DNA of 25,434 bases from a virus (lineage: Duplodnaviria; Caudoviricetes): the IMG/VR virus record IMGVR_UViG_3300043772_002964, positions 1-25,434 of that record. One strand, written 5' to 3'. Of the stretch, positions 1,847-19,712 are shown one piece after another. The notes below the pieces were generated by a model, which searched no databases, was not told the origin of the DNA, and worked only from the letters and a program-made list of their open reading frames with translations. The position numbers were made by a program, and so were the translations under genes. Position 1 is the first letter of the stretch, and each line of letters starts with the position of its first letter.

Positions 1847-2022
1847 GAACAATCATCTGATTTATAATTAAACAATATGTTAATCCGTAGGGTTAGTATC
1901 AACACAATCCAAAGTGTTTGGTTTAATGTAAATGTACAAGCCTATAATTATATACTGAAAGGCGTTTGATAGTCTGTTGATTATTAAGAAGTATTACTAT
2001 TGGAGAGTACGGATGATTGTTT
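1847..2022 (+). ncRNA. Candidate structured non-coding RNA
   Basis: AACAATCATCTG (1848-1859) pairs with CGGATGATTGTT (2010-2021), with one G-U pair on the + strand; nested ATCAACA/TGTTGAT and GCCT/AGGC helices; no ORF. Confidence 0.45.
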
Positions 2023-2030
2023 TATATTTG
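2000..2030 (+). promoter_or_regulatory. Bacteroidota-type promoter in front of tRNA-like element 1
   Basis: TTG (2000-2002), 20-nt spacer, TATATTTG (2023-2030); the element starts at 2040. Confidence 0.55.
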
Positions 2031-2039
2031 TAAACATAT

Positions 2040-2166
2040 AGTCAGGTGGCGTATGGGATTACGTTGTCGGGTCACAAATGTCGGTAATCAAGACGGGTGT
2101 ATAGCATGGAACAAGCCCTGAGAGAAAAACATACCAAACATACAGGTTCAAGTCCTGTCCTGACTA
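2040..2166 (+). ncRNA. tRNA-like element 1 (acceptor, D-like and T arms; about 76-nt non-canonical interior)
   Basis: AGTCAGG/CCTGACT acceptor stem plus A discriminator; GCGTA-tgggat-TACGT hairpin; ACAGG-TTCAAGT-CCTGT T arm; no 5-7-5 anticodon arm found; 3' CTA instead of CCA. Confidence 0.75.
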
Positions 2167-2181
2167 CTAACAATTAATAAT

Positions 2182-2379
2182 ATGGTTATAGTAAAAGTAA
2201 AAAATTGCAAACATCAAGGTAGGAATAATCAAAACACAACTTTTTTCTTTTCTGAAAGAAATTTTGGATTTGTTAAAGATGAAATAGTTACTCCTGAATG
2301 GGTTTTGCAAAATCTAAGTATTATTAAAAAAGATATTGAAAAACAAAATAACACAAAAATAGAAATAGAACAAAAATAG
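2182..2379 (+). CDS. Hypothetical protein
   Basis: 65-aa ORF 15 nt after tRNA-like element 1. Confidence 0.65.
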   Translation: MVIVKVKNCKHQGRNNQNTTFFFSERNFGFVKDEIVTPEWVLQNLSIIKKDIEKQNNTKIEIEQK

Positions 2380-2417
2380 TTGAACGAAAACTTGAAGAGA
2401 TAAGTAAAATACAAACT

Positions 2418-2840
2418 ATGGAAATAACAAAAAATAACATATGTCAAAAAATTGAGGATTACCTTAAAGAAAAAAAACTTAATTTTAATATCCTAGAACA
2501 GAATGATCAGGGTCTTAATTATGAAATTTATTTGGGTTCATCCGAAGCTCATATTCAAGTTGAGTACGATTTGACTAACGATGATGATAACTCTGTTTAC
2601 CTTCAGTTATATACAAAGTTAGACGAATATGGTAACTCATTTTATCATCAAGATTGGGATAGTGGTGACATCGATGCCGATTCTGTGGAAGGTGAGATTG
2701 ATAATTTGGTAGACTCGACAATCTCTTTAACAAAAGCGTATTCAAAAATAAATTCTAAAATAGATCAAATTAGAGATCTTTGTATTGAATACAATATAGA
2801 TTTTGACGAAATAATTACCATTCACGTTGATTTAGAATAA
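2418..2840 (+). CDS. Acidic hypothetical protein
   Basis: 140 aa; hand count about 32 D/E versus about 10 K/R. Confidence 0.8.
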   Translation: MEITKNNICQKIEDYLKEKKLNFNILEQNDQGLNYEIYLGSSEAHIQVEYDLTNDDDNSVYLQLYTKLDEYGNSFYHQDWDSGDIDADSVEGEIDNLVDSTISLTKAYSKINSKIDQIRDLCIEYNIDFDEIITIHVDLE

Positions 2841-2846
2841 AAATAC

Positions 2847-2953
2847 AGTCAGGTGGCGGAATGGTAGACGCTAGAAGTGAATAGATAAGTAAGTGTATTG
2901 TCACTTAAACAACTTCGCTACTTATCATACAGGTTCAAGTCCTGTCCTGACTA
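2847..2953 (+). ncRNA. tRNA-like element 2 (Leu-type D arm; anticodon arm absent, enlarged helix before the T arm)
   Basis: Same acceptor and T arm as element 1; D arm GCGGAATGGTAGACGC typical of class II tRNA-Leu; interior helix GATAAGTA (2884-2891)/TACTTATC (2919-2926). Confidence 0.8.
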
Positions 2954-2975
2954 CTAACAATTTAAACTAAACAAA

Positions 2976-3170
2976 ATGATAACAATTATAAAAAATACAC
3001 CTAATCATATTGTTTTTGAAAAAGACAATAAACAAGAACCTTGGTTTAATAATAACTGTTCAAATGAAGAGTTATTAAAACATTCTAATAGACCTAGTGA
3101 TACTATTAAGAATGTAAAATGGGAAGATGGTAAATATACTGCTTCATTACTTAATGTTTATTTTAAATAA
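2976..3170 (+). CDS. Hypothetical protein
   Basis: 64-aa ORF following element 2, with an A-rich leader. Confidence 0.7.
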   Translation: MITIIKNTPNHIVFEKDNKQEPWFNNNCSNEELLKHSNRPSDTIKNVKWEDGKYTASLLNVYFK

Positions 3171-3186
3171 CTAAAAACTAAACAAA

Positions 3187-3450
3187 ATGATACTAACAAT
3201 CTTAATAACGATTTACATACTTTCTTTTTTAAGAATGTACAGATGGACTAAAAATGCATATAGTAAAGATGGTATAATGTATGAGTTTGCGCCTGAATTT
3301 TCAGATTTTTTAGCCACAATATTTCCTGGTGTCAATACATTATTTTCTTTTATTGTAATTAAATATAGTTGGACAGGAAAACTAAACTCAAAAGGTTTTA
3401 AAATCGATCTTTCCAAGTTTCTCTCTAAATTTTTTAATATTAAAAAATGA
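3187..3450 (+). CDS. Small membrane protein
   Basis: 87 aa with two hydrophobic segments; ATGA overlap with the next gene. Confidence 0.75.
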   Translation: MILTILITIYILSFLRMYRWTKNAYSKDGIMYEFAPEFSDFLATIFPGVNTLFSFIVIKYSWTGKLNSKGFKIDLSKFLSKFFNIKK

Positions 3451-4259
3451 AACCACTTCAAATCAACAATAAACATTACCAAGAGTGTGATGTTGTTATG
3501 TTGCAAACCGACAAGGCTGAAAATTCTTTATATGCTTCTTACGATAAGATTTTAAATTATTATAGCGGTCATTTAACTCAAGACTATTTAAAGAATGTTC
3601 TTTTAGCTAAGTCTTATCATCTTTACATTCTATCAAATGATGAAATAAAAAAAGGTGATTGGTTTTTTAGTTCTGAAAACACTATTGAAAAATATATTGG
3701 TTCAATAATGCCTATTTATTTAGATAAAAAAATCATTGCTACTACTGATAGTTCTTTGAAACAAGATTTAGAATATATTAATGGCGGTAAATGCGGAGAA
3801 GTTTGTTTACTACAAATCCCTAAATCATTTATTGAAAAATATATTACCGAACACAACAAAGGTAATGTGATTAGTAACGTGTTGGTTGAAATTGAAGATG
3901 ATTATTCTTCTGTTCCTGAAAATGAAGAAGATATAATATTTCCTTGGAGAGCTTACGTTACTTCTAAAATCAAAGTTAATCAGTCCTATGAAATCTCTAT
4001 TTTAACTAAAAAAAAGACTTTACTATCAAATTTACAATCTGAACTACAAAAATATATTGATAAAAGACACAATCAAGATGAGTGTAGTGGATTTGTTGAT
4101 GGTTTTGAAAGAGCTTGTGAATTAGATAAAGAAAGTTATAGTAGAGAAGAAGTTGTTGCATTACTTGAAAAAATGTTTTATTATGGTGCTGATTGTCAAA
4201 GACAAGGTAATGCACACATAGAATTTTGTGATAGTTGGATTGAACAAAACCTAAAATAA
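3447..4259 (+). CDS. Mosaic family A phage protein (divergent member)
   Basis: Blocks HLYILSNDEIKKGDWFF, KKIIATTD and YSREEV are shared with ORFs 4441 and/or 6094. Confidence 0.85.
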   Translation: MKPLQINNKHYQECDVVMLQTDKAENSLYASYDKILNYYSGHLTQDYLKNVLLAKSYHLYILSNDEIKKGDWFFSSENTIEKYIGSIMPIYLDKKIIATTDSSLKQDLEYINGGKCGEVCLLQIPKSFIEKYITEHNKGNVISNVLVEIEDDYSSVPENEEDIIFPWRAYVTSKIKVNQSYEISILTKKKTLLSNLQSELQKYIDKRHNQDECSGFVDGFERACELDKESYSREEVVALLEKMFYYGADCQRQGNAHIEFCDSWIEQNLK

Positions 4260-4260
4260 A

Positions 4261-4292
4261 TTTGGCGGTTTCATAAATAACCGATATCTTTG
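4261..4292 (+). promoter_or_regulatory. Bacteroidota-type promoter
   Basis: TTTG (4261-4264), 20-nt spacer, TATCTTTG (4285-4292). Confidence 0.8.
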
Positions 4293-4300
4293 ATTTTGTT

Positions 4301-4444
4301 ATGAGAGAATATAATACAACAGATGATTTCACATTTGAAACACCTTTTGGTAAATTAACTTGTAAAGTTCATTTTGATAAAGGTTATTGGTGGACAACAA
4401 CTAAACTGAGTTACAAATGTGATTCTTTAAAACTTATATTATGA
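4301..4444 (+). CDS. Small hypothetical protein (47 aa)
   Basis: Hand translation MREYNTTDDFTFETPFGKLTCKVHFDKGYWW...; follows a promoter; ATGA overlap with 4441. Confidence 0.6.
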   Translation: MREYNTTDDFTFETPFGKLTCKVHFDKGYWWTTTKLSYKCDSLKLIL

Positions 4445-5088
4445 AAAACTTACATTTATTACCAACAGATAAACCAAGTAGAATATGGGTAAATAATCTT
4501 AGAAGAAGACTTGAGTTAGAAAATGAAAATTTGATAGGTAGTAATACTGCTAAACACATCTACATTACTTCTGATAAAAAAATTAAAAGAGGGGATTATT
4601 TTCTTTCTTTAAATGAGGACGAATCTTATTTAGAAGTAACCTTGAATGATAAAGTAGATGATTTTAATGAATATGCTGATGAAGATTGGGTAGAAAATTG
4701 TAAAAAAATAATCCTAACAACAGACAAAGAACTTATTGCTGATGGTGTACAAGCGATTGATGATGAGTTTTTAGAATGGTTTGTTAATAATTCAAGTTGT
4801 GAGGAGGTTAAGATTGAAGATTATGGGAATTTATATAATTTTAGATATTTAATCCTCATTCCACAAGAAGAACCTAAACAAGAAACACTTGAAGAAGCTG
4901 CAAAACAGTATTCAGAATTAATCCCATATGTTAGTGATATTGTAACTGATAATTCAAGATTAGATTTTATAGCAGGTGCTAAATGGCAAGCCGATGAAAT
5001 CTTCAAATGGTTAGAAAGTAAAGACTACCTAACAGACTCCAAAGATACGATACGAGAAGAATATGACAAAAAACAAAAGTCAAGGTAA
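4441..5088 (+). CDS. Mosaic family A phage protein
   Basis: MKNLHLLPTDKPSR, HIYITSD, CKKIILTTD, DEFLEWFVNN, EPKQETLEEAA, FIAGAKWQ. Confidence 0.9.
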   Translation: MKNLHLLPTDKPSRIWVNNLRRRLELENENLIGSNTAKHIYITSDKKIKRGDYFLSLNEDESYLEVTLNDKVDDFNEYADEDWVENCKKIILTTDKELIADGVQAIDDEFLEWFVNNSSCEEVKIEDYGNLYNFRYLILIPQEEPKQETLEEAAKQYSELIPYVSDIVTDNSRLDFIAGAKWQADEIFKWLESKDYLTDSKDTIREEYDKKQKSR

Positions 5089-6020: not shown

Positions 6021-6052
6021 TTTGGTCATGTTAAAAGATATTTTTATCTTTG
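6021..6052 (+). promoter_or_regulatory. Bacteroidota-type promoter
   Basis: TTTG (6021-6024), 20-nt spacer, TATCTTTG (6045-6052). Confidence 0.8.
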
Positions 6053-6093: not shown

Positions 6094-6963
6094 ATGAAAA
6101 ACTTACATTTATTACCAACAGATAAACCAAGCAGATTACATTATTATTCTGTTTTAAATTTTGGGGTATCTAAAGAAAATTTAAATTGGAAACAAGGTAG
6201 ACACATCTACATCACTTCTGATGAAGAAATTAAAGAAGGTGATTGGTTTTTTAATGGTGAACATATATTACAATGTTCAGATGTTACTGACATTATTATA
6301 GATACAGAAGGTCAATGGAGTACTATTGAAGACTGTAAAAAAATCATCCTAACAACAGACCCAGACCTAATCAAAGATGGTGTACAATCGATTAATGATG
6401 AGTTTTTAGAATGGTTTGTTAATAACCCTACTTGTAATAGTGTTGAAGTTAAATGGGTAAAAACACCTGATGGTATATTTTATCATAAAGACAATGTTCC
6501 TTACGGTTATTATAAAATCATCATTCCACAAGAAGATAAGATTAATCTTAGTGAATCCTTAATGGAACTTAAAGAAGATAACATCCTTGAGATGTTTATA
6601 AACGAACAGGGATATCCTGATGGACCGACACAGGAAGTTTGGTCGAATGGTGTTAGGGAGGGAATAGAATGGTATAGGAAAAAAGATCAAAAAATCATTC
6701 CTAACGATGCCACAGATGTTGAGGTATTTGCAATTAAGGAAGATGCGGATGGTAAACCATTTGCTTATATTGGATACAAAATAAGTAATGGTAATTTCCA
6801 TTTCACTACGGTTCCATTTACTGAACCTAAACAAGAAAAAATGTATACTGAGTCAGAGGTTTTGAAATTATTGGTATCTTGTAAAGATAGATTCGGTGGT
6901 TCTGAGTTATATGACTATACATCCGATAAAGAAGTTATTAATTGGTTTAAAAGACTTAAATAA
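6094..6963 (+). CDS. Mosaic family A phage protein
   Basis: First 38 nt identical to ORF 4441; same conserved blocks; different C-terminal modules. Confidence 0.9.
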   Translation: MKNLHLLPTDKPSRLHYYSVLNFGVSKENLNWKQGRHIYITSDEEIKEGDWFFNGEHILQCSDVTDIIIDTEGQWSTIEDCKKIILTTDPDLIKDGVQSINDEFLEWFVNNPTCNSVEVKWVKTPDGIFYHKDNVPYGYYKIIIPQEDKINLSESLMELKEDNILEMFINEQGYPDGPTQEVWSNGVREGIEWYRKKDQKIIPNDATDVEVFAIKEDADGKPFAYIGYKISNGNFHFTTVPFTEPKQEKMYTESEVLKLLVSCKDRFGGSELYDYTSDKEVINWFKRLK

Positions 6964-8408: not shown

Positions 8409-8780
8409 ATGGAACCTAAACACATAACATTAGAACAATCTAAATGGTTTAAAGAAAAAGGATTTGATGAAAAAGTGAAAAGATTTTTTGATTTAATATC
8501 AAATACAGAAATAGGTGACGCATCATTAGGTAATTATAATTTGACTAAGCAATCTGTTTCTATACCGGAACAACATGAAATAGTTGATTGGTTAAGAGTA
8601 AAACATGATATTTGGATTGGTGTAATGCCTGATGTTGGTATGGATTTAATTTATACCTACAAAATATATTCTGTAGAAGTTGGTGTTGAGAGAGGTTTAG
8701 CAAATGGTAATAATTATGATACACCACAAGAAGCTTACTCAGCTGCGTTTGATTACATTAAAAACAATAATTTGATATAA
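8409..8780 (+). CDS. Family B phage protein
   Basis: MEPKHIT...PEQHEIVDWLRV...AYSAAFDYIKNNNLI. Confidence 0.88.
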   Translation: MEPKHITLEQSKWFKEKGFDEKVKRFFDLISNTEIGDASLGNYNLTKQSVSIPEQHEIVDWLRVKHDIWIGVMPDVGMDLIYTYKIYSVEVGVERGLANGNNYDTPQEAYSAAFDYIKNNNLI

Positions 8781-8785
8781 CACAA

Positions 8786-9181
8786 ATGGAACCTAAATAC
8801 ATAACATTTGAACAAGCTAAATGGCTTAAAGAGAAAGGATTTAACGAACCTTGCGATAGCATTTATAAAGAAGATGGTGAATTTCAATCTTATAAAAATG
8901 TCGGTGATATTAGAACTCATTTTAATAATAGTGAACCAATTAACCCTAAAACTTGGCATAGATATGATACCTCAGCACCAGAACAACATCAAGTAGTAGA
9001 TTGGTTAAGAGTTAATCATGATATTTGGGTTAGTGTTGCTGTAGAAGATGATAAATGGTTTTATGGAATTAAAAAAATCTTTAATCAATATGGAGTTATA
9101 AGTAACGAAATTCCATATAATTCTCCACAAGATGCTTATTCAGCAGCATTTGATTACATTAAAAACAATGATTTGATATGA
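8786..9181 (+). CDS. Family B phage protein (tandem paralog)
   Basis: MEPKYIT...PEQHQVVDWLRV...AYSAAFDYIKNNDLI. Confidence 0.88.
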   Translation: MEPKYITFEQAKWLKEKGFNEPCDSIYKEDGEFQSYKNVGDIRTHFNNSEPINPKTWHRYDTSAPEQHQVVDWLRVNHDIWVSVAVEDDKWFYGIKKIFNQYGVISNEIPYNSPQDAYSAAFDYIKNNDLI

Positions 9182-9857: not shown

Positions 9858-9968
9858 GTGAAACTTAAAGACAGAATAAAAATTTCCATTTTTGGATGGA
9901 ATCCTATTATTTGGATGATGGGTTTATATTGTGCTTTTTTTCACCCTGAAAGATACAAAAATTTATGA
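9858..9968 (+). CDS. Small hydrophobic protein (36 aa)
   Basis: GTG start, KLKDRIKISIFGWNPIIWMMGLYCAFFHPERYKNL; ATGA overlap with 9965. Confidence 0.5.
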   Translation: MKLKDRIKISIFGWNPIIWMMGLYCAFFHPERYKNL

Positions 9969-10231
9969 AAGGAATATATCTTACACCAGAAGGTAAACAA
10001 GAGATTGAAGCTAAGATAGCTGAACTTGAGGAATATAAAGATAGTGACTCTTGTAAAGACTCAAGAGATTGGTCTTTCATTTCGGGTAAACAATCTATTT
10101 TAAAAGAAATTCTATCATCAGCAACAATACTACCTGTTGAAACGAATATGAGTTATGTTAAATCTCAAGATTTTGGTGATGAATTTACTATTGAATATCC
10201 TAACGGAGTAATCATACAACCTAAACAATAA
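9965..10231 (+). CDS. Family D protein with shortened Gre-like coiled coil
   Basis: IYLTPEGKQEIEAKIAEL and FISGK...LSSATIL recall the two helices of the GreA N-terminal domain; the Gre link is tentative. Confidence 0.65.
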   Translation: MKGIYLTPEGKQEIEAKIAELEEYKDSDSCKDSRDWSFISGKQSILKEILSSATILPVETNMSYVKSQDFGDEFTIEYPNGVIIQPKQ

Positions 10232-10239
10232 ATGCAAAT

Positions 10240-10515
10240 ATGAAAGGAATATATCTAACCGAAGAAGGTAAACAAGAGATTGAAGCTCAAATAGCTGAAC
10301 TGCAAGCCACTTACCGTCACTATGCCGATTGGGAAGGTAAACTTGGAGAGTTAAAGGTTTACAAGGAACTTTTGGTATCAGCAACAATACTACCTGTTGA
10401 GGAAAACTGGGTTGACCTTGATAATAAAGCATTTGAAGAAGAATTCAAATTTCATCAGTATCTTTACAATAGCAGAAAATACCCTAACGGAGTAATCATA
10501 CAACCTAAACAATAA
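10240..10515 (+). CDS. Family D protein (tandem paralog)
   Basis: Shares identical 25-, 24- and 34-nt blocks with 9965. Confidence 0.65.
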   Translation: MKGIYLTEEGKQEIEAQIAELQATYRHYADWEGKLGELKVYKELLVSATILPVEENWVDLDNKAFEEEFKFHQYLYNSRKYPNGVIIQPKQ

Positions 10516-10890: not shown

Positions 10891-10922
10891 TTTGGTATTC
10901 TAAAAAAGTATTCGTAGTTTTG
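10891..10922 (+). promoter_or_regulatory. Bacteroidota-type promoter of the lemA operon
   Basis: TTTG (10891-10894), 20-nt spacer, TAGTTTTG (10915-10922). Confidence 0.8.
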
Positions 10923-13749: not shown

Positions 13750-14103
13750 ATGAAAGTTGTTATTAGTGAAAACCAAAGAGATAAATTAAACAACATAATT
13801 TATCAAAAAATAGACTATATGTTCGATATAGATGAAATGATTCCTGTTGATATGGAAGTTCATAGATACGATGTTATTTCACCTAACTATGATATCTTTT
13901 TTAAGGTTTATTTACCTCAATACTGGTCTGATGATACTTTTGAAGGTAATGAGATGAAAAAACGTTCTCCCGTATTAGATTTAGAAAAAGAATATGAAGA
14001 TAAATTAAATTCTCTTTTTGGGCCATTATGGCACGACCAAATGATAAAGTGGGTTGAAAATAATTTTCCATTTTTACCATTAATTAAATCCGTAGGTCTT
14101 TAG
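13750..14103 (+). CDS. Hypothetical protein with MKVVISENQ N terminus
   Basis: N-terminal motif shared with 15278, 15609 and 23541. Confidence 0.8.
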   Translation: MKVVISENQRDKLNNIIYQKIDYMFDIDEMIPVDMEVHRYDVISPNYDIFFKVYLPQYWSDDTFEGNEMKKRSPVLDLEKEYEDKLNSLFGPLWHDQMIKWVENNFPFLPLIKSVGL

Positions 14104-14105
14104 AT

Positions 14106-14453
14106 ATGAAATTAGAAGCGGCGTTAAAATTAGAAAAAGTTGTTGAGCGTATTGTTGAGAGTTATATTAAAGATTATAACAATATAAGTGATAATTTTTA
14201 TAAGGTTAAATGTGATATTTACCCATCAAATTATGGTTTGAATTGTCATATAACACTTTTATTTGAAAAACCATTTAGTAGGAATGAGTCTGATTTTATC
14301 CATACTATTATGTCAACAAGTGGTATTAAAAAACGTGTTGACAACAGCTTAGGAAATATATTTGATGGAGGGGTACATCATTCTCAATCAACTATCGACA
14401 GTTATGAGGGGACGAGTCAGTGGTATGATTTACAAAAACAACGACTTCAATAG
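14106..14453 (+). CDS. Hypothetical protein
   Basis: 115-aa ORF, tightly packed. Confidence 0.78.
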   Translation: MKLEAALKLEKVVERIVESYIKDYNNISDNFYKVKCDIYPSNYGLNCHITLLFEKPFSRNESDFIHTIMSTSGIKKRVDNSLGNIFDGGVHHSQSTIDSYEGTSQWYDLQKQRLQ

Positions 14454-14497
14454 GGTATTCTTTTGAATAATTTTTATTATATTTTAAATAAAAAATT

Positions 14498-14683
14498 ATG
14501 ACAACAGAACAAAAAGCGGTAAAATACGGTGAACTACTAAATTTACACACAAGAATTCAAAATAAAGTTGCCGAAATCAAAGGACAAGACATAGAACTTA
14601 ACCAACAACAACTTTCTGAAATCAGAAAATACGAAAATCAGTTAATCCAAATCACAAACGAAATCAAAAAAATAATGGTATGA
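14498..14683 (+). CDS. Small coiled-coil protein
   Basis: 61 aa, helical-hairpin pattern, ATGA overlap. Confidence 0.75.
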   Translation: MTTEQKAVKYGELLNLHTRIQNKVAEIKGQDIELNQQQLSEIRKYENQLIQITNEIKKIMV

Positions 14684-14946
14684 AACTATCAGTTTCGGTA
14701 GATGTGGAAATCAAAGACGGTAGGTCTTATATCTCAATCGGTTTTCCAAAAAATCAACAACAAATCACCGTACAAGATACTTCTCACATATTGGCTGGGG
14801 CAATATCACTTCTTATAAAATCATCGTCTCAGGGTGATACAATCAAGGATTATGAATTGATTAAAGAAGTGATTGATCATTTGAATTCGGAATTCGTTAA
14901 TATTGATTCATATGCTGATGCATATGTATCCAAAAATATGGTATAA
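14680..14946 (+). CDS. Hypothetical protein
   Basis: 88-aa ORF. Confidence 0.75.
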   Translation: MKLSVSVDVEIKDGRSYISIGFPKNQQQITVQDTSHILAGAISLLIKSSSQGDTIKDYELIKEVIDHLNSEFVNIDSYADAYVSKNMV

Positions 14947-14972
14947 GATATATTTATAACATATGAAAATTA

Positions 14973-15281
14973 GTGAATAATATGATTTCGGAAAAAATGA
15001 CTATCTTTTTGTTTAAATACTTGGATACTATATTCAAGAAAGAATATTTTGATCCCGAAGAATTTAACGAGGAACCGTCCTTGTATGTAATTTACGGTGA
15101 TGGTTATACATTTGAAATTAGTAAACTCTTACAAAGAATTAATGTAACAGCAAAATTATTCCATAAAATGCATTCTCTTTTTGGAGTGTCTTATGGTGAT
15201 TTGTCTGATTTAATACGATATTATTTAAGTGATAAATTAAAATATGATTTTAAGTTTTACCCGACATTACCATCTTTATGA
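14973..15281 (+). CDS. Hypothetical protein (start uncertain)
   Basis: FKYLD...MHSLFG pattern resembles 13750 and 15609; GTG start, in-frame ATG (MISEK) three codons later. Confidence 0.7.
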   Translation: MNNMISEKMTIFLFKYLDTIFKKEYFDPEEFNEEPSLYVIYGDGYTFEISKLLQRINVTAKLFHKMHSLFGVSYGDLSDLIRYYLSDKLKYDFKFYPTLPSL

Positions 15282-15607
15282 AAATAATTTTAAATGAAAA
15301 TCAAAATCAATTAAGAAGGAGGATCTCTAAAATAGATGAGATGGTTTCAGGTTGGTTTACTTTTAAGTATATAAAGACTTTTAATGCGATATTCGACGGA
15401 TTTTACGATATGGTTATCGAAGATGTCGTTGAGAGAATGTATTATCATTATTTTCAGGACTTAGACGATCAGTCCAAAGAGTGGGAGGAAATTTATGAAA
15501 TGATATTACAATACATCGATCTTCGCTGGAAGGATGAGTTAAAGGACTATTTCGATATGAGGCAGAAGGAATATGAAAATAGAGTTAAATTGAAACTTGG
15601 AAAGTGA
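15278..15607 (+). CDS. Hypothetical protein (MKIILNENQ, QLRRR family)
   Basis: 109-aa ORF with both shared motifs. Confidence 0.8.
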   Translation: MKIILNENQNQLRRRISKIDEMVSGWFTFKYIKTFNAIFDGFYDMVIEDVVERMYYHYFQDLDDQSKEWEEIYEMILQYIDLRWKDELKDYFDMRQKEYENRVKLKLGK

Positions 15608-15608
15608 T

Positions 15609-15926
15609 ATGAAGATTATTGTAACTGAAAATAAAATAGAAAGTGTTATGATTCGTTACCTACAAGATATTGCGAAAGTTAATTTTGAGCCGGGAAATCA
15701 CGACGGTAGGTATTTACAATATTTTGACGCTAATGGTGATCTATTTATGGAAATAGATACTTGGACCTCAACAAATAGAGACTGTAAAATTAAATACCGA
15801 TACTATGTTAAAATGTATGAGTTACTAAGTATGGAAGCCGGAAAATATCACGAATTACTTAAATCGGTTTTGGAGAAAATAACAGGATATGATATTCACA
15901 ATATCATTCCTTCAATATACTTATAA
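15609..15926 (+). CDS. Hypothetical protein (MKIIVTENK)
   Basis: ATG 15609 preferred over TTG 15597 because it removes the overlap and gives the shared N-terminal motif. Confidence 0.78.
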   Translation: MKIIVTENKIESVMIRYLQDIAKVNFEPGNHDGRYLQYFDANGDLFMEIDTWTSTNRDCKIKYRYYVKMYELLSMEAGKYHELLKSVLEKITGYDIHNIIPSIYL

Positions 15927-16810: not shown

Positions 16811-18592
16811 ATGACAAAGTTTCAAAGAAGAAGCATTTACTTATCTGCCTTAATTACGATATTATTCCTCTTTTACAAATACTCACTAACGGCGGGTATA
16901 ATTACGCACAATAGATATACTGATTTATTTGAAGTTATTTATTTCCTAACGACATCGGTTATAACATTTAAATTGTTTCACGGCTTAATTACTAGAAATA
17001 GGAAATACGAACAAACCCAACTTAATTCAAAGAAGTTTAATGAGGTGTTATTAAACCAATCATACAACCCTGATTATTATAGTGGAGATATTAATCAGGC
17101 GGCAAAAACTATGACCAGAGAAGCGGTTGATACGTTGGATGCCGATAGATGTTCAGTATGGTTATATAATAAAAGCAGATCGTCGATAACTTGTGTCGAA
17201 TTATATGTGAAATCTGAACTATTATGGTATCAAGATATAAAATTATATAAAAAAGATTATAAACCTTATTTCGATTATATTGAAGTTAACCCAATAATCA
17301 TAGCAAATGATGCGGAGACCCACCCCGCAACAGAATGTTTTACCGAGACATATTTAAAACCTTTAGGTATAAAATCTATGTTGGATGTTCCGATAATATA
17401 CAAGGGTGATGTTTTAGGTGTGGTGTGTATTGAATCATTTGACAAACGTGAATGGACCACCGAGGAACTTAATTTTTCGCAAATGTTATCTTCATTATAC
17501 AGTTTTACACATTCGGTAAATGAGTCAAACAAACTTTCGAATGTTGTTACATCAAAAGAAAATCAAATAATTAACAGGATGAACGCCATAAACCGTTCTA
17601 ATGCGGTTATTGAGTTTGATTTGAATGGTACGGTCCAATTCGCTAATAATATATTTCTAGATTTGATGGGTTATAATTCCGAAGAAATTGTTGGACAACA
17701 CCATAGTATGTTCGTTAGAGATGAAGAAAAAAATTCTAAAGAGTATTCAGATTTTTGGAATAAATTAAAGAAAGGTCAATACTTTTCGGGTGATATTGTT
17801 AGAGTCAAAAAAGATGGTACATTAGTGTATTTAATATCAACATACAATCCTATTGTAAATGAAAACGGTAAAACATATAGGGTAATGAAAATTGCCACAG
17901 ATGTTACATCAAACGTATTACAACAAATAGAAATTGAAAAGAAAAACACTTATTTAGAACATGCGGCAAAAATAATCCGACATGATATGCATTCAGGTAT
18001 TAACACCTATATACCAAGAGGTGTAAGTTCATTAGAAAGACGTTTATCCCCTGATGATATTGAGAAATTGAAGATATCCGCTCCTCTTAAAATGATTAAA
18101 GAAGGATTAATTCATACACAAAAAGTATATAAAGGAGTATACGAATTTACAAATTTAGTTAAAAAAGATGCTATTTTTCATACATCACCTCATGACTTGA
18201 AAGAAATATTAGAAAGTTATTTAACTTCAACATCTTATAAAAGTCAAGTGTTAATTTCTGAACTACCTACGATAGATGTTAATGATTCACTATTTTGTAC
18301 TGCGGTGGATAATTTGATACGTAACGGTCTAAAATATAACGATTCAGACACAAAAGTAATAAAAATATATATGGAATCTGACAACCTATTAATTATTCAA
18401 GATAACGGTAGAGGTATGTCTCAACAAGATTTCGAATATTTATCTAAACCATATGTTAGAAAACAAGATCAAAAAGAAACAGGTACAGGATTGGGGTTAA
18501 ACATTTGTTTAGCCATAATGGAAGAACATGGTTTTAATTTGTATTGTGAGAAAAATGACATAGGTACTAAAATGATAATAAAAATTAAATAA
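16811..18592 (+). CDS. Sensor histidine kinase: 2 TM, GAF, PAS, DHp, HATPase
   Basis: GAF (ADRCSVWLY, GIKSMLDVPI, WTTEE); PAS (AVIEFDLNG, GQHHSMFV, YNPI, ATDVT); H box IIRHDM; N box NLIRNGLKY; G1 DNGRGM; G2 GTGLGL. Confidence 0.95.
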   Translation: MTKFQRRSIYLSALITILFLFYKYSLTAGIITHNRYTDLFEVIYFLTTSVITFKLFHGLITRNRKYEQTQLNSKKFNEVLLNQSYNPDYYSGDINQAAKTMTREAVDTLDADRCSVWLYNKSRSSITCVELYVKSELLWYQDIKLYKKDYKPYFDYIEVNPIIIANDAETHPATECFTETYLKPLGIKSMLDVPIIYKGDVLGVVCIESFDKREWTTEELNFSQMLSSLYSFTHSVNESNKLSNVVTSKENQIINRMNAINRSNAVIEFDLNGTVQFANNIFLDLMGYNSEEIVGQHHSMFVRDEEKNSKEYSDFWNKLKKGQYFSGDIVRVKKDGTLVYLISTYNPIVNENGKTYRVMKIATDVTSNVLQQIEIEKKNTYLEHAAKIIRHDMHSGINTYIPRGVSSLERRLSPDDIEKLKISAPLKMIKEGLIHTQKVYKGVYEFTNLVKKDAIFHTSPHDLKEILESYLTSTSYKSQVLISELPTIDVNDSLFCTAVDNLIRNGLKYNDSDTKVIKIYMESDNLLIIQDNGRGMSQQDFEYLSKPYVRKQDQKETGTGLGLNICLAIMEEHGFNLYCEKNDIGTKMIIKIK

Positions 18593-18603
18593 CCTAACCT
18601 AAA

Positions 18604-19038
18604 ATGATAGAATCAATTTTACTTGTAGACGACGAGGATCTTTTTCACTTAGTTTTTGAAGATGCCTGTTCATTGCTTGAGATAAGTTTATCTCTTAAGT
18701 CAGTTAATAGTTCTGACGAAGCGGCTAAAATGTTTAAACTATGGTATGAAACCAGTAGTAGTGATAAACCTGAATGTGTTTTTGTGGATCTTAATATTAT
18801 AGGTTCTTCTTTTGACGGAATTGAACTTATTAGAAAGATAAATTTTGAGTATGGTAACCACGTTGTTATTGGTATCATATCATCATCTAACGAACCCGAA
18901 GAACAAGCAAAGGCAATACAGGCCGGTGCTCAATTTTGGATTATAAAATCTGACAATATAGAACCGAGATTGGAGGAATTTAAGAAAGATTATGATAATT
19001 ATAAGAATAGAACGGCTCCTTTTAAAATTTACAAATGA
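18604..19038 (+). CDS. Stand-alone response regulator receiver
   Basis: ILLVDDED, phosphoacceptor VFVDLNI, ISSS, AGAQFWIIKS; no output domain. Confidence 0.93.
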   Translation: MIESILLVDDEDLFHLVFEDACSLLEISLSLKSVNSSDEAAKMFKLWYETSSSDKPECVFVDLNIIGSSFDGIELIRKINFEYGNHVVIGIISSSNEPEEQAKAIQAGAQFWIIKSDNIEPRLEEFKKDYDNYKNRTAPFKIYK

Positions 19039-19712
19039 TCTCATTTAATAAACAAACTAAACAACAGTTAATTACCTTATGTAAGACAAGGAATATTTGT
19101 CTTGAGGGGAATATTATTAGGGTTATCGATTATTCCGGTGATACCGAATTTGAACAATATATTAAAACTTGTTTAGATAAAGATAAAGAGGTTAGAAAGA
19201 AGAGATTAGAGATTACCAAACAAGTACAGTCTAAAAATAATGAGTTAATCGATTTAAATAAGGAAAATGAGAGAATAATGCAAGAACTACGAAGTAGTTT
19301 AAAATCTGTCGAAGAGTCTAGGGTAAATTTTGAAGTTCAAAATAAGGAATTAACCTTATGGAAAGAAGAAAATGAAAAGATAAGTTTAGAATTACAACAA
19401 GAAATGTTAAAGTCGGAACAGGCTAGAATAGAAGCGGAAAACGCTAAAAAAACGGCTGAAAACGATTTAGATGTATTGCAAAAAAGAACTCAAACTCAAT
19501 TAATAGAAAGAATAGTTAAAGTTTCATTAGGGGTTATTATGACAGTAGGTGTTATAACAACCTTGATGTATGTGATTGCGTTATTTAATGATAAAGACAC
19601 TCAGATGATAGGTTCTACTTGGTCAAACATGTTAGGTATTTTACTAACAAACGCATTTAGTATTATAGGAACTATTATGGGTGTTAAATACGCATCTAAA
19701 GAAACAGAATGA
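19035..19712 (+). CDS. Coiled-coil protein with two C-terminal TM helices
   Basis: Long E/K/Q-rich heptad region then two hydrophobic segments; ATGA overlap with the receiver gene. Confidence 0.8.
   Translation: MISFNKQTKQQLITLCKTRNICLEGNIIRVIDYSGDTEFEQYIKTCLDKDKEVRKKRLEITKQVQSKNNELIDLNKENERIMQELRSSLKSVEESRVNFEVQNKELTLWKEENEKISLELQQEMLKSEQARIEAENAKKTAENDLDVLQKRTQTQLIERIVKVSLGVIMTVGVITTLMYVIALFNDKDTQMIGSTWSNMLGILLTNAFSIIGTIMGVKYASKETE

Follow-up and report, generated by a model that had tools for sequence, protein, structure and literature searches.

Putative tRNA-shaped RNA genes with variable inserts in a phage sequence and its relatives

Described tRNA-like RNAs of phages and the setting of the window

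In the GenBank entry of phage T5 (AY543070), RNA1 and RNA2, of 144 and 125 nt, are given as misc_RNA with the annotation "tRNA-like stable RNA with unknown functions". They sit in the tRNA region among short ORFs, and in both an acceptor stem, a D hairpin and a T arm surround an enlarged, folded and non-decoding interior, as in the elements described here; the T arm of RNA2 agrees with the consensus of the present family at all but one of 17 positions, and the D arm of RNA1 is of the Leu type. In 418 records T5 RNA2 was matched over at least 80% of its length, almost always as a single copy; among the 25 matches listed, this RNA (L134:6960-7084) is mostly unannotated or lies under hypothetical ORFs. 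For phage T4, species 1 RNA (rnaC) and species 2 RNA (rnaD) are described as stable RNAs cut from the transcript of the tRNA cluster (PMC2330249). Species 1 RNA likewise has a T arm at its end and an enlarged interior. Like those of T5, the tRNA-like stable RNAs of T4 are annotated without a known function.

The stretch analysed here (in the following, the window) is a virus record of 25,434 bases with an endolysin, LemA, TPM, a sensor kinase and numerous short genes without known family. With the Bacteroidota promoter consensus and the G-5 numbering taken from PMC6847099, six exact matches to the -33/-7 promoter were counted in the window, compared to 0.98 expected, and for this reason a member of the Bacteroidota is the likely host of the phage. 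A scan for sigma-70 promoters gave 23 matches versus 32.7 expected, i.e., no excess. From the promoter-like site in front of element 1 (Table 1) a transcription start at about position 2035 is predicted, which would leave a leader of about 5 nt. In the family as a whole, 16 of 274 copies have a -7 box whose end lies no more than 10 nt from the shell, and the other 10-nt bins contain 0-4 each.

Other parts of the window are mentioned for completeness. Promoters of the Bacteroidota type, on the same strand, head the short-ORF region at 1247-1278, 4261-4292, 6021-6052 and 10891-10922. Three paralogous ORFs of phrog_15656 are located at 3447-4259, 4441-5088 and 6094-6963, and more paired paralogs at 8409-9181 and 9965-10515. 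Unrelated short ORFs at 13750-15926 and 23541 share a similar N-terminal peptide (MK/D-I/V-I/V-I-x-E-x-Q). In this virus record the endolysin has as neighbours (16811-19712) a GAF-PAS histidine kinase, a response regulator and a membrane protein with a coiled coil.

The two elements of the window and their inserts

The sequence-only reading of this region had described two tRNA-shaped frames with a 7-bp acceptor stem, an A discriminator, a D-type hairpin, a T arm and inserts of 76 and 57 nt, followed by ORFs at distances of 15 and 22 nt. All of these features were located (Table 1), and a scan for the T arm yielded these two copies only (at 2142 and 2929). As had been anticipated there, no ordinary tRNA was called: ARAGORN reported 0 tRNAs and 0 tmRNAs in the window, and neither element was matched in Rfam at a threshold of E ≤ 5. 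An anticodon stem (5 bp with a 7-nt U33 loop) is absent from both elements. Of the two D hairpins, which had been noted as differing from each other, that of element 2 proved to be the standard Leu-type arm of the family, with a 21-nt match to a phage tRNA-Leu.

Table 1. Features of the region with the two tRNA-shaped elements (positions in the window)
Feature	Position	Strand	Remarks
Promoter-like site, Bacteroidota-type	2000..2030	+	-33 box (1 mismatch), 20-nt spacer, -7 box
Element 1, tRNA shell	2040..2167	+	covariation in 18 relatives
Element 1, acceptor	2040-2046/2159-2165	+	7 bp
Element 1, D-like hairpin	2049-2064	+	
Insert type E1	2066..2141	+	76 nt; aligned relatives
E1 helices	2078-2081/2129-2132 and 2095-2098/2115-2118	+	each 100% paired, one two-sided change each
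E1 invariant T-loop-like segment	2118-2124	+	
Element 1, T arm	2142-2158	+	
Element 1, A73; C74	2166; 2167	+	
65-aa ORF	2182..2379	+	15 nt downstream of element 1; no known family; may be a cassette gene
140-aa ORF between shells	2418..2840	+	no Pfam or PHROG family
Element 2, tRNA shell	2847..2954	+	covariation in 15 relatives
Element 2, acceptor	2847-2853/2946-2952	+	7 bp
Element 2, D arm, Leu-type	2856-2871	+	
Insert type E2	2872..2928	+	57 nt
E2 hairpin, one bulge	2884-2895/2916-2926	+	11 bp; 96.7% of cells paired
E2 candidate pseudoknot	loop 2901-2906 with 2875-2880	+	6 bp
Element 2, T arm	2929-2945	+	
Element 2, A73; C74	2953; 2954	+	
64-aa ORF	2976..3170	+	22 nt downstream of element 2; no known family; may be a cassette gene

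A chance origin of these structures can be dismissed, with an estimated 1,800 viral matches to the 23-nt 3' end and none to the reversed pattern in 26 records. The folding energy of element 2 (z = -2.37) is in favour of a structure and that of element 1 (z = +0.17; insert alone, +1.10) is not, and the case rests therefore on comparison. Covariation was computed for the two insert families E1 and E2, in which independent changes are few.

The core pattern of E1 matched 22 viral and 64 metagenome stretches, of which 7 and 18, respectively, are true relatives. In every true relative (the 7 viral ones and the 18 of 64 metagenome stretches with the downstream core), E1 is enclosed by the T-arm shell. 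In 18 aligned elements 98.0% of cells are paired and 8 of 25 pairs show a two-sided change, which none of 500 shuffles equalled; two of these eight pairs fall in helices of the insert. The segment CTGAGAG was not part of the search pattern; it is identical in all 18 elements, while the neighbouring loop and the D arm vary. In one locus (L187) the E1 insert is found inside a wholly different shell with G73. The invariant segment, the persistence in a foreign shell and the T-arm shell around each relative indicate that E1 matters independently of the shell and is under selection by itself.

For E2, 14 of 66 pattern matches are relatives. In the alignment of 15 relatives, three sisters among them, 96.2% of cells are paired and 10 of 32 pairs have two-sided changes (0 of 500 shuffles). 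The 8-bp helix that had been noticed earlier is real but longer (Table 1). The alternative pairings proposed with it are kept in part: across 15 relatives GAAGT/ACTTC is paired in 73% and TAAGTG/CACTTA in 80%. A different pairing joins 2875-2880 and 2901-2906. Its six complementary positions are retained in 12 of 12 close relatives, with one-sided changes only; the inner four pairs of TAAGTG/CACTTA, which form a competing 4-bp helix, are also mostly kept. In a sister subfamily (L135, L138, L149) the letters differ and the loop complementarity is the same, as read by eye. Thus, the E2 loop is likely to form a pseudoknot, judging from the retained complementarity.

Extent of the family and exchange of inserts

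The viral collection is divided into 64 parts; in five of them 132 stretches with the 23-nt 3' end were found, from which the estimate given above was extrapolated. Among 185,579 prokaryote genomes 28 stretches with this end were found, all in metagenome bins and 14 of them labelled Bacteroidota; they are read as mis-binned phage contigs, and one (L160) holds an ordinary tRNA. Element 2 was absent from 50,697 records of cultured phages, and no description of the shell family was found in the open-access literature. In 26 long records 1-12 copies per record were present (reversed-pattern control, 0). In total, 289 distinct elements of 61-191 nt were collected, with 198 insert clusters, 150 of them singletons; the first scan, which was unbiased, contained 143 insert types in 184 copies, corresponding to a Chao1 estimate of about 560. 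A match to the T4-type Gp23 was obtained in 9 of 22 records and was missing in three of six near-complete ones, and for this reason the shell likely spans several phage lineages.

Samples and scope: Elements were excluded if they contained N or if their 5' strand could not be located, and inserts shorter than 30-40 nt were dropped from the fold and similarity tests. The tests comprised 152 of 198 clusters (rRNA), 153 (motifs), 162 (guide matches) and 186 of 264 (folding). Gene searches covered 22-26 long records, and those for CCA-adding enzyme and RtcB five near-complete records. Conservation of the 3' shell and of the insert blocks used as queries follows from the design of the searches and was left out of the evidence.

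In the arrays, shells alternate with tRNAs, short ORFs and non-coding spacers; no tRNA is present in the window, and among the relatives many shells sit among tRNAs, others alone. Some arrays also contain GOLLD RNA (L370:2366-2783) or freshwater-1 RNA (L372:214-276), as identified with Rfam, and more anticodon-less tRNA-like elements with other acceptor sequences occur in the same arrays (L373:308-439, L370:1666-1744, and L375, 3070-3174 on the minus-strand map).

The ends of the elements resemble those of tRNAs. At positions not covered by the search pattern, 292 of 296 elements encode C74, as do 194 of 199 canonical tRNAs of the same loci; for U-1 the numbers are 245 of 296 and 147 of 199, respectively. 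These similar frequencies suggest the same processing route as for tRNAs, and tRNA-like processing is considered very probable. A complete CCA is encoded in 10 of 296 elements and 19 of 199 canonical tRNAs; a CCA-adding enzyme was detected in one of five near-complete records. Of 264 elements, 248 have the D-loop GG and 110 an exact Leu-type D arm. Among the 222 elements with A15, 200 have U at position 48, and among the 8 with G15, 6 have C there (Fisher p 5e-6, the sequences being related and not independent). Searches with inserts alone recovered shells with compensatory acceptor and T stems in L138, L148, L187, L202 and L227. Taken together, the comparative data indicate that the elements are almost certainly real RNA genes under selection. 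The idea of a natural family of tRNA scaffolds with variable structured cargo has been borne out. A canonical anticodon arm is kept in 4 of 264 elements, which indicates that the shell can arise from, or revert to, a tRNA. Two shells with a canonical Lys(UUU) anticodon arm (L024:2998-3069 and L055:4488-4559) are apparently decoding tRNAs.

Inserts within a locus are almost always different; of 301 copy pairs in 173 locus groups, one shared the insert type. The 11 copies of E2 were found in 11 different upstream and 11 different downstream neighbourhoods, and the 20 copies of E1 in 16 and 19, respectively. Of the pairs with homologous upstream flanks of 70 nt (281 copies), 51 differed in the insert and 10 agreed; for downstream flanks (267 copies) the numbers were 42 and 7. 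The homologous flanks were frequently identical right up to the junction. When both flanks were homologous, 8 pairs had different inserts (four slots, one of them with three insert types) and 3 the same. Since inserts recur with almost always new flanks, while homologous flanks hold different inserts, it may be concluded with good confidence that inserts are exchanged through the shell. The route is likely homologous or microhomology recombination in the 5' and 3' halves of the shell, because the insert is unlinked from both flanks, no reverse transcriptase was found in 22 records and no consistent target-site duplications were seen. Runs of identity shared between copies stop at several positions, without a single visible crossover point; RecA-family matches were present in 9 of 22 records. 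Concerted evolution within loci was not significant (minor shell variants shared, 13 vs 8.2; p 0.11). A SINE-like retro-element was considered and rejected, since target-site duplications were not consistent and reverse transcriptase was missing.

On the whole, the inserts are hardly more stable than shuffled sequences (the median z is -0.56 for 186 inserts and -0.11 for 180 flanks). Certain motifs are in excess in 153 insert types, namely GNRA loops (49 vs 27.7), the T-loop-like GTTCR (23 vs 11.4) and TGAGA (27 vs 14.0); GNRA, GTTCR, TGAGA and GTAA each exceeded all 60 shuffles.

Possible functions

The explanation preferred here is that exchangeable structured inserts are carried in a tRNA frame, are processed by the host and act in trans on host proteins, plausibly in counter-defence; as a whole this appears plausible, if tentative. 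Transcription would start from a promoter of the Bacteroidota type, and the tRNA frame would allow host RNase P, 3' trimming and CCA addition to release and stabilise each RNA. The shell would adopt an L-shaped elbow, and its halves would serve as a recombination joint between phages. The inserts could then act in trans as decoys or inhibitors of host proteins, most plausibly in counter-defence. Trans-acting, protein-binding RNAs under host-driven diversification would fit the one-of-each arrays, the high turnover and the conserved tertiary motifs. For insert-specific action on host proteins the balance is about even, and the counter-defence role, with its target, is the least supported part of the whole reading. 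Phage tRNA-rich regions are reported to hold counter-defence functions, and nucleases of the PtuAB type cleave the variable loop of tRNA (PMC11555353, PMC13096335). In a direct test, a phage tRNA is reported to have rescued infection from the OLD nuclease by replacing the host tRNA and not by inhibition (10.64898/2026.07.10.737580); this counts against a decoy role, and a non-decoding RNA cannot replace a host tRNA. Further points against the explanation are the weak folding of the inserts, the one-sided changes in the E2 pseudoknot, the non-significant sharing of minor shell variants and the RecA-family matches in no more than 9 of 22 records; nor does any partner gene recur, the most frequent ORF cluster near shells occurring in 11 of 177 loci. 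An extended version of the explanation is on the doubtful side. It would be an integron-like library of RNA effectors, with one shell as both maturation signal and recombination joint, and with hundreds of aptamer-like inserts, each for a different component of host defence or translation, of which each genome would collect single copies and which unrelated lineages of phages would trade.

Several other explanations have to be weighed. The shell might be mere punctuation, which frees or protects adjacent mRNAs and small RNAs and serves as a joint for gene shuffling, the insert simply folding without a target. The arrays, in which shells alternate with short ORFs and spacers, would agree with this, as would the shuffling of flanks at the shell, the weak folding of inserts and the ORFs which start within 60 nt behind 84 of 264 shells (median distance 18 nt). 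A homolog of the 140-aa ORF, 48% identical, is found in another phage (locus L373), 14 nt behind a shell with a different insert; among 40 candidate viral stretches no relative of this ORF was confirmed, and one was found in G039. A search of the ESM Atlas gave a best value of 0.81 to a hypothetical cluster for the 140-aa ORF and nothing usable for the 65-aa ORF. On the other hand, 157 of 264 copies have neither an ORF nor a tRNA close behind. The role as a processing signal for a particular downstream gene, which the sequence-only reading had suggested, is not supported, in view of the differing downstream neighbours of the same insert (19 of 20 for E1, 11 of 11 for E2). Furthermore, unpaired residues of the insert are invariant while adjoining loop and D-arm residues vary, an insert outlives a full change of shell (L187), and a pure signal needs neither hundreds of types nor one-of-each arrays; punctuation alone is thus regarded as unlikely. 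It is improbable that the elements are selfish cassettes, spreading in phage tRNA regions by recombination of shells without any benefit. The many neighbourhoods of one insert (11 of 11 for E2, 16-19 of 20 for E1), the occurrence in records with Gp23 (9 of 22) and in three near-complete ones without it, and copy numbers from 1 to 12 would be compatible with it, but no mobility gene (reverse transcriptase in 0 of 22) and no consistent target-site duplication was seen, and such cassettes should amplify one type per genome, in conflict with the single same-type pair in 301. Aminoacylation with leucine via A73 and the elbow, or entry of uncharged RNAs into ribosomes, with modulation of translation or stringent signalling and inserts that tune the interaction, is decidedly improbable. 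Bacterial LeuRS does not depend on the anticodon, and A73 (264 of 296), A15:U48 and the exact Leu-type D arms would suit such a role; however, A1-U72 is present in 272 of 296 elements, while 19 of 199 canonical tRNAs of the same loci start with A, 32 of 296 have G or U as discriminator, and E1 occurs in a G73 shell.

Only a very slight probability is assigned to the inserts being fragments or mimics of host rRNA, acting as decoys for rRNA-binding toxins or ribosomal proteins. Alignment scores of at least 30 were reached by 16 of 152 inserts, compared to 8.8 per shuffled set and 7 for reversed sequences; on rRNA profiles 13 of 152 exceeded all 20 shuffles (7.2 expected), although none reached 2 bits. 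A few inserts are colinear with conserved segments of 16S or 23S rRNA (L202:1460-1591, L047, L074, L086, L051, L104), the family-wide excess being weak. Mean scores equalled those of shuffles (p 0.86; p 0.33 against E. coli alone), and Rfam gave no rRNA match in 27 loci. An excess of sense over antisense (129 vs 60) vanished against shuffled and reversed controls and is hence compositional; a weak tail remains, for which the shared GNRA and T-loop motifs can account. That the inserts are base-pairing guides or antisense RNAs on a processing scaffold is very unlikely indeed. Arrays with constant flanks and variable cores look like guide arrays, and the diversity of types is very high. Neither strand of 789 kb of masked phage DNA showed an excess of matches to 162 insert types (seeds of at least about 12 nt). 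For CRISPR- or TIGR-like arrays, lengths of 61-191 nt are not uniform, and target matches and an adjoining effector gene were not seen; the covariation within the molecules also speaks against guides. A comparison of the interiors with host sequences had been proposed; the two window inserts matched 7 and 8 of 301 genomes of the host phylum (E ≤ 0.05), about as by chance, with one exception, a truncated copy of the element itself. Decaying pseudo-tRNAs or intron-bearing tRNAs, for which the four elements with an anticodon arm could be cited, are largely refuted and scarcely credible. The stems do not decay neutrally, as compensatory changes were found in relatives of both E1 and E2; removal of a segment restored an anticodon arm in 1 of 220 elements, compared to 0.8 in shuffles, with a negative result for both window elements, and RtcB was missing in five near-complete records.

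Comparison with known systems

Two further identities were tried and rejected. The elements are not tmRNAs, considering U3-A70 instead of the tmRNA-type G3-U70, the lack of a tag frame and the negative results with ARAGORN and Rfam. For Y RNA (YrlA), TROVE/Ro60 was found in one of 26 records and in none of six near-complete virus records. Both YrlA Y RNA and the tRNA-like domain of tmRNA are cases of tRNA mimicry without an anticodon.

The family has canonical tRNA features, i.e., the 7-bp acceptor stem, the T arm and the D-loop GG, and it resembles class II tRNA-Leu in the D arm (21-nt identity between a Caulobacter phage tRNA-Leu and element 2), A73, A15:U48 and the T loop. It differs from class II tRNA-Leu by the lack of an anticodon arm (four of 264 have one), by A1-U72 and by an interior of up to about 140 nt. 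Shells are overlooked by annotation tools or given arbitrary anticodons, and phage tRNA counts can be distorted in consequence.

In engineered tRNA-scaffold aptamers and tRNA-gRNA polycistrons the anticodon arm is replaced by cargo, and the tRNA ends provide processing and stability. These scaffolds are artificial, whereas the present family is natural, diversified and apparently exchanged. If the inserts bind proteins as effectors, they would constitute a counter-defence repertoire at the RNA level and a natural counterpart of the engineered aptamers. Integron cassette arrays and the PeSL cassettes of T4-type phages have short conserved repeats between exchangeable cassettes of small genes; in the present family the repeat is itself a tRNA-shaped RNA gene with an exchanged interior, and no single crossover point was seen.

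The T4 RNAs rnaC and rnaD are single copies of unrelated sequence without a Leu-type D arm, and are not known to be exchanged. The closest known kind is represented by T5 RNA1 and RNA2. The window elements share the architecture of these and are of the same kind, but they are not their orthologs, as element 2 showed no sequence match to T5 in the 50,697 phage records. T5 has two RNAs with different shells; in the window family a single shell sequence recurs, in as many as 12 copies per record, and holds hundreds of inserts that can be exchanged. The family is set apart by the reused shell, the arrays of several copies, the hundreds of insert types and the exchange. What had been one-off curiosities of T4 and T5 becomes, with the shell family, a set of hundreds of variants that occur in nature and have the frame in common, and because the frame is shared, the role of the shell should be separable from that of the insert by insert swaps.
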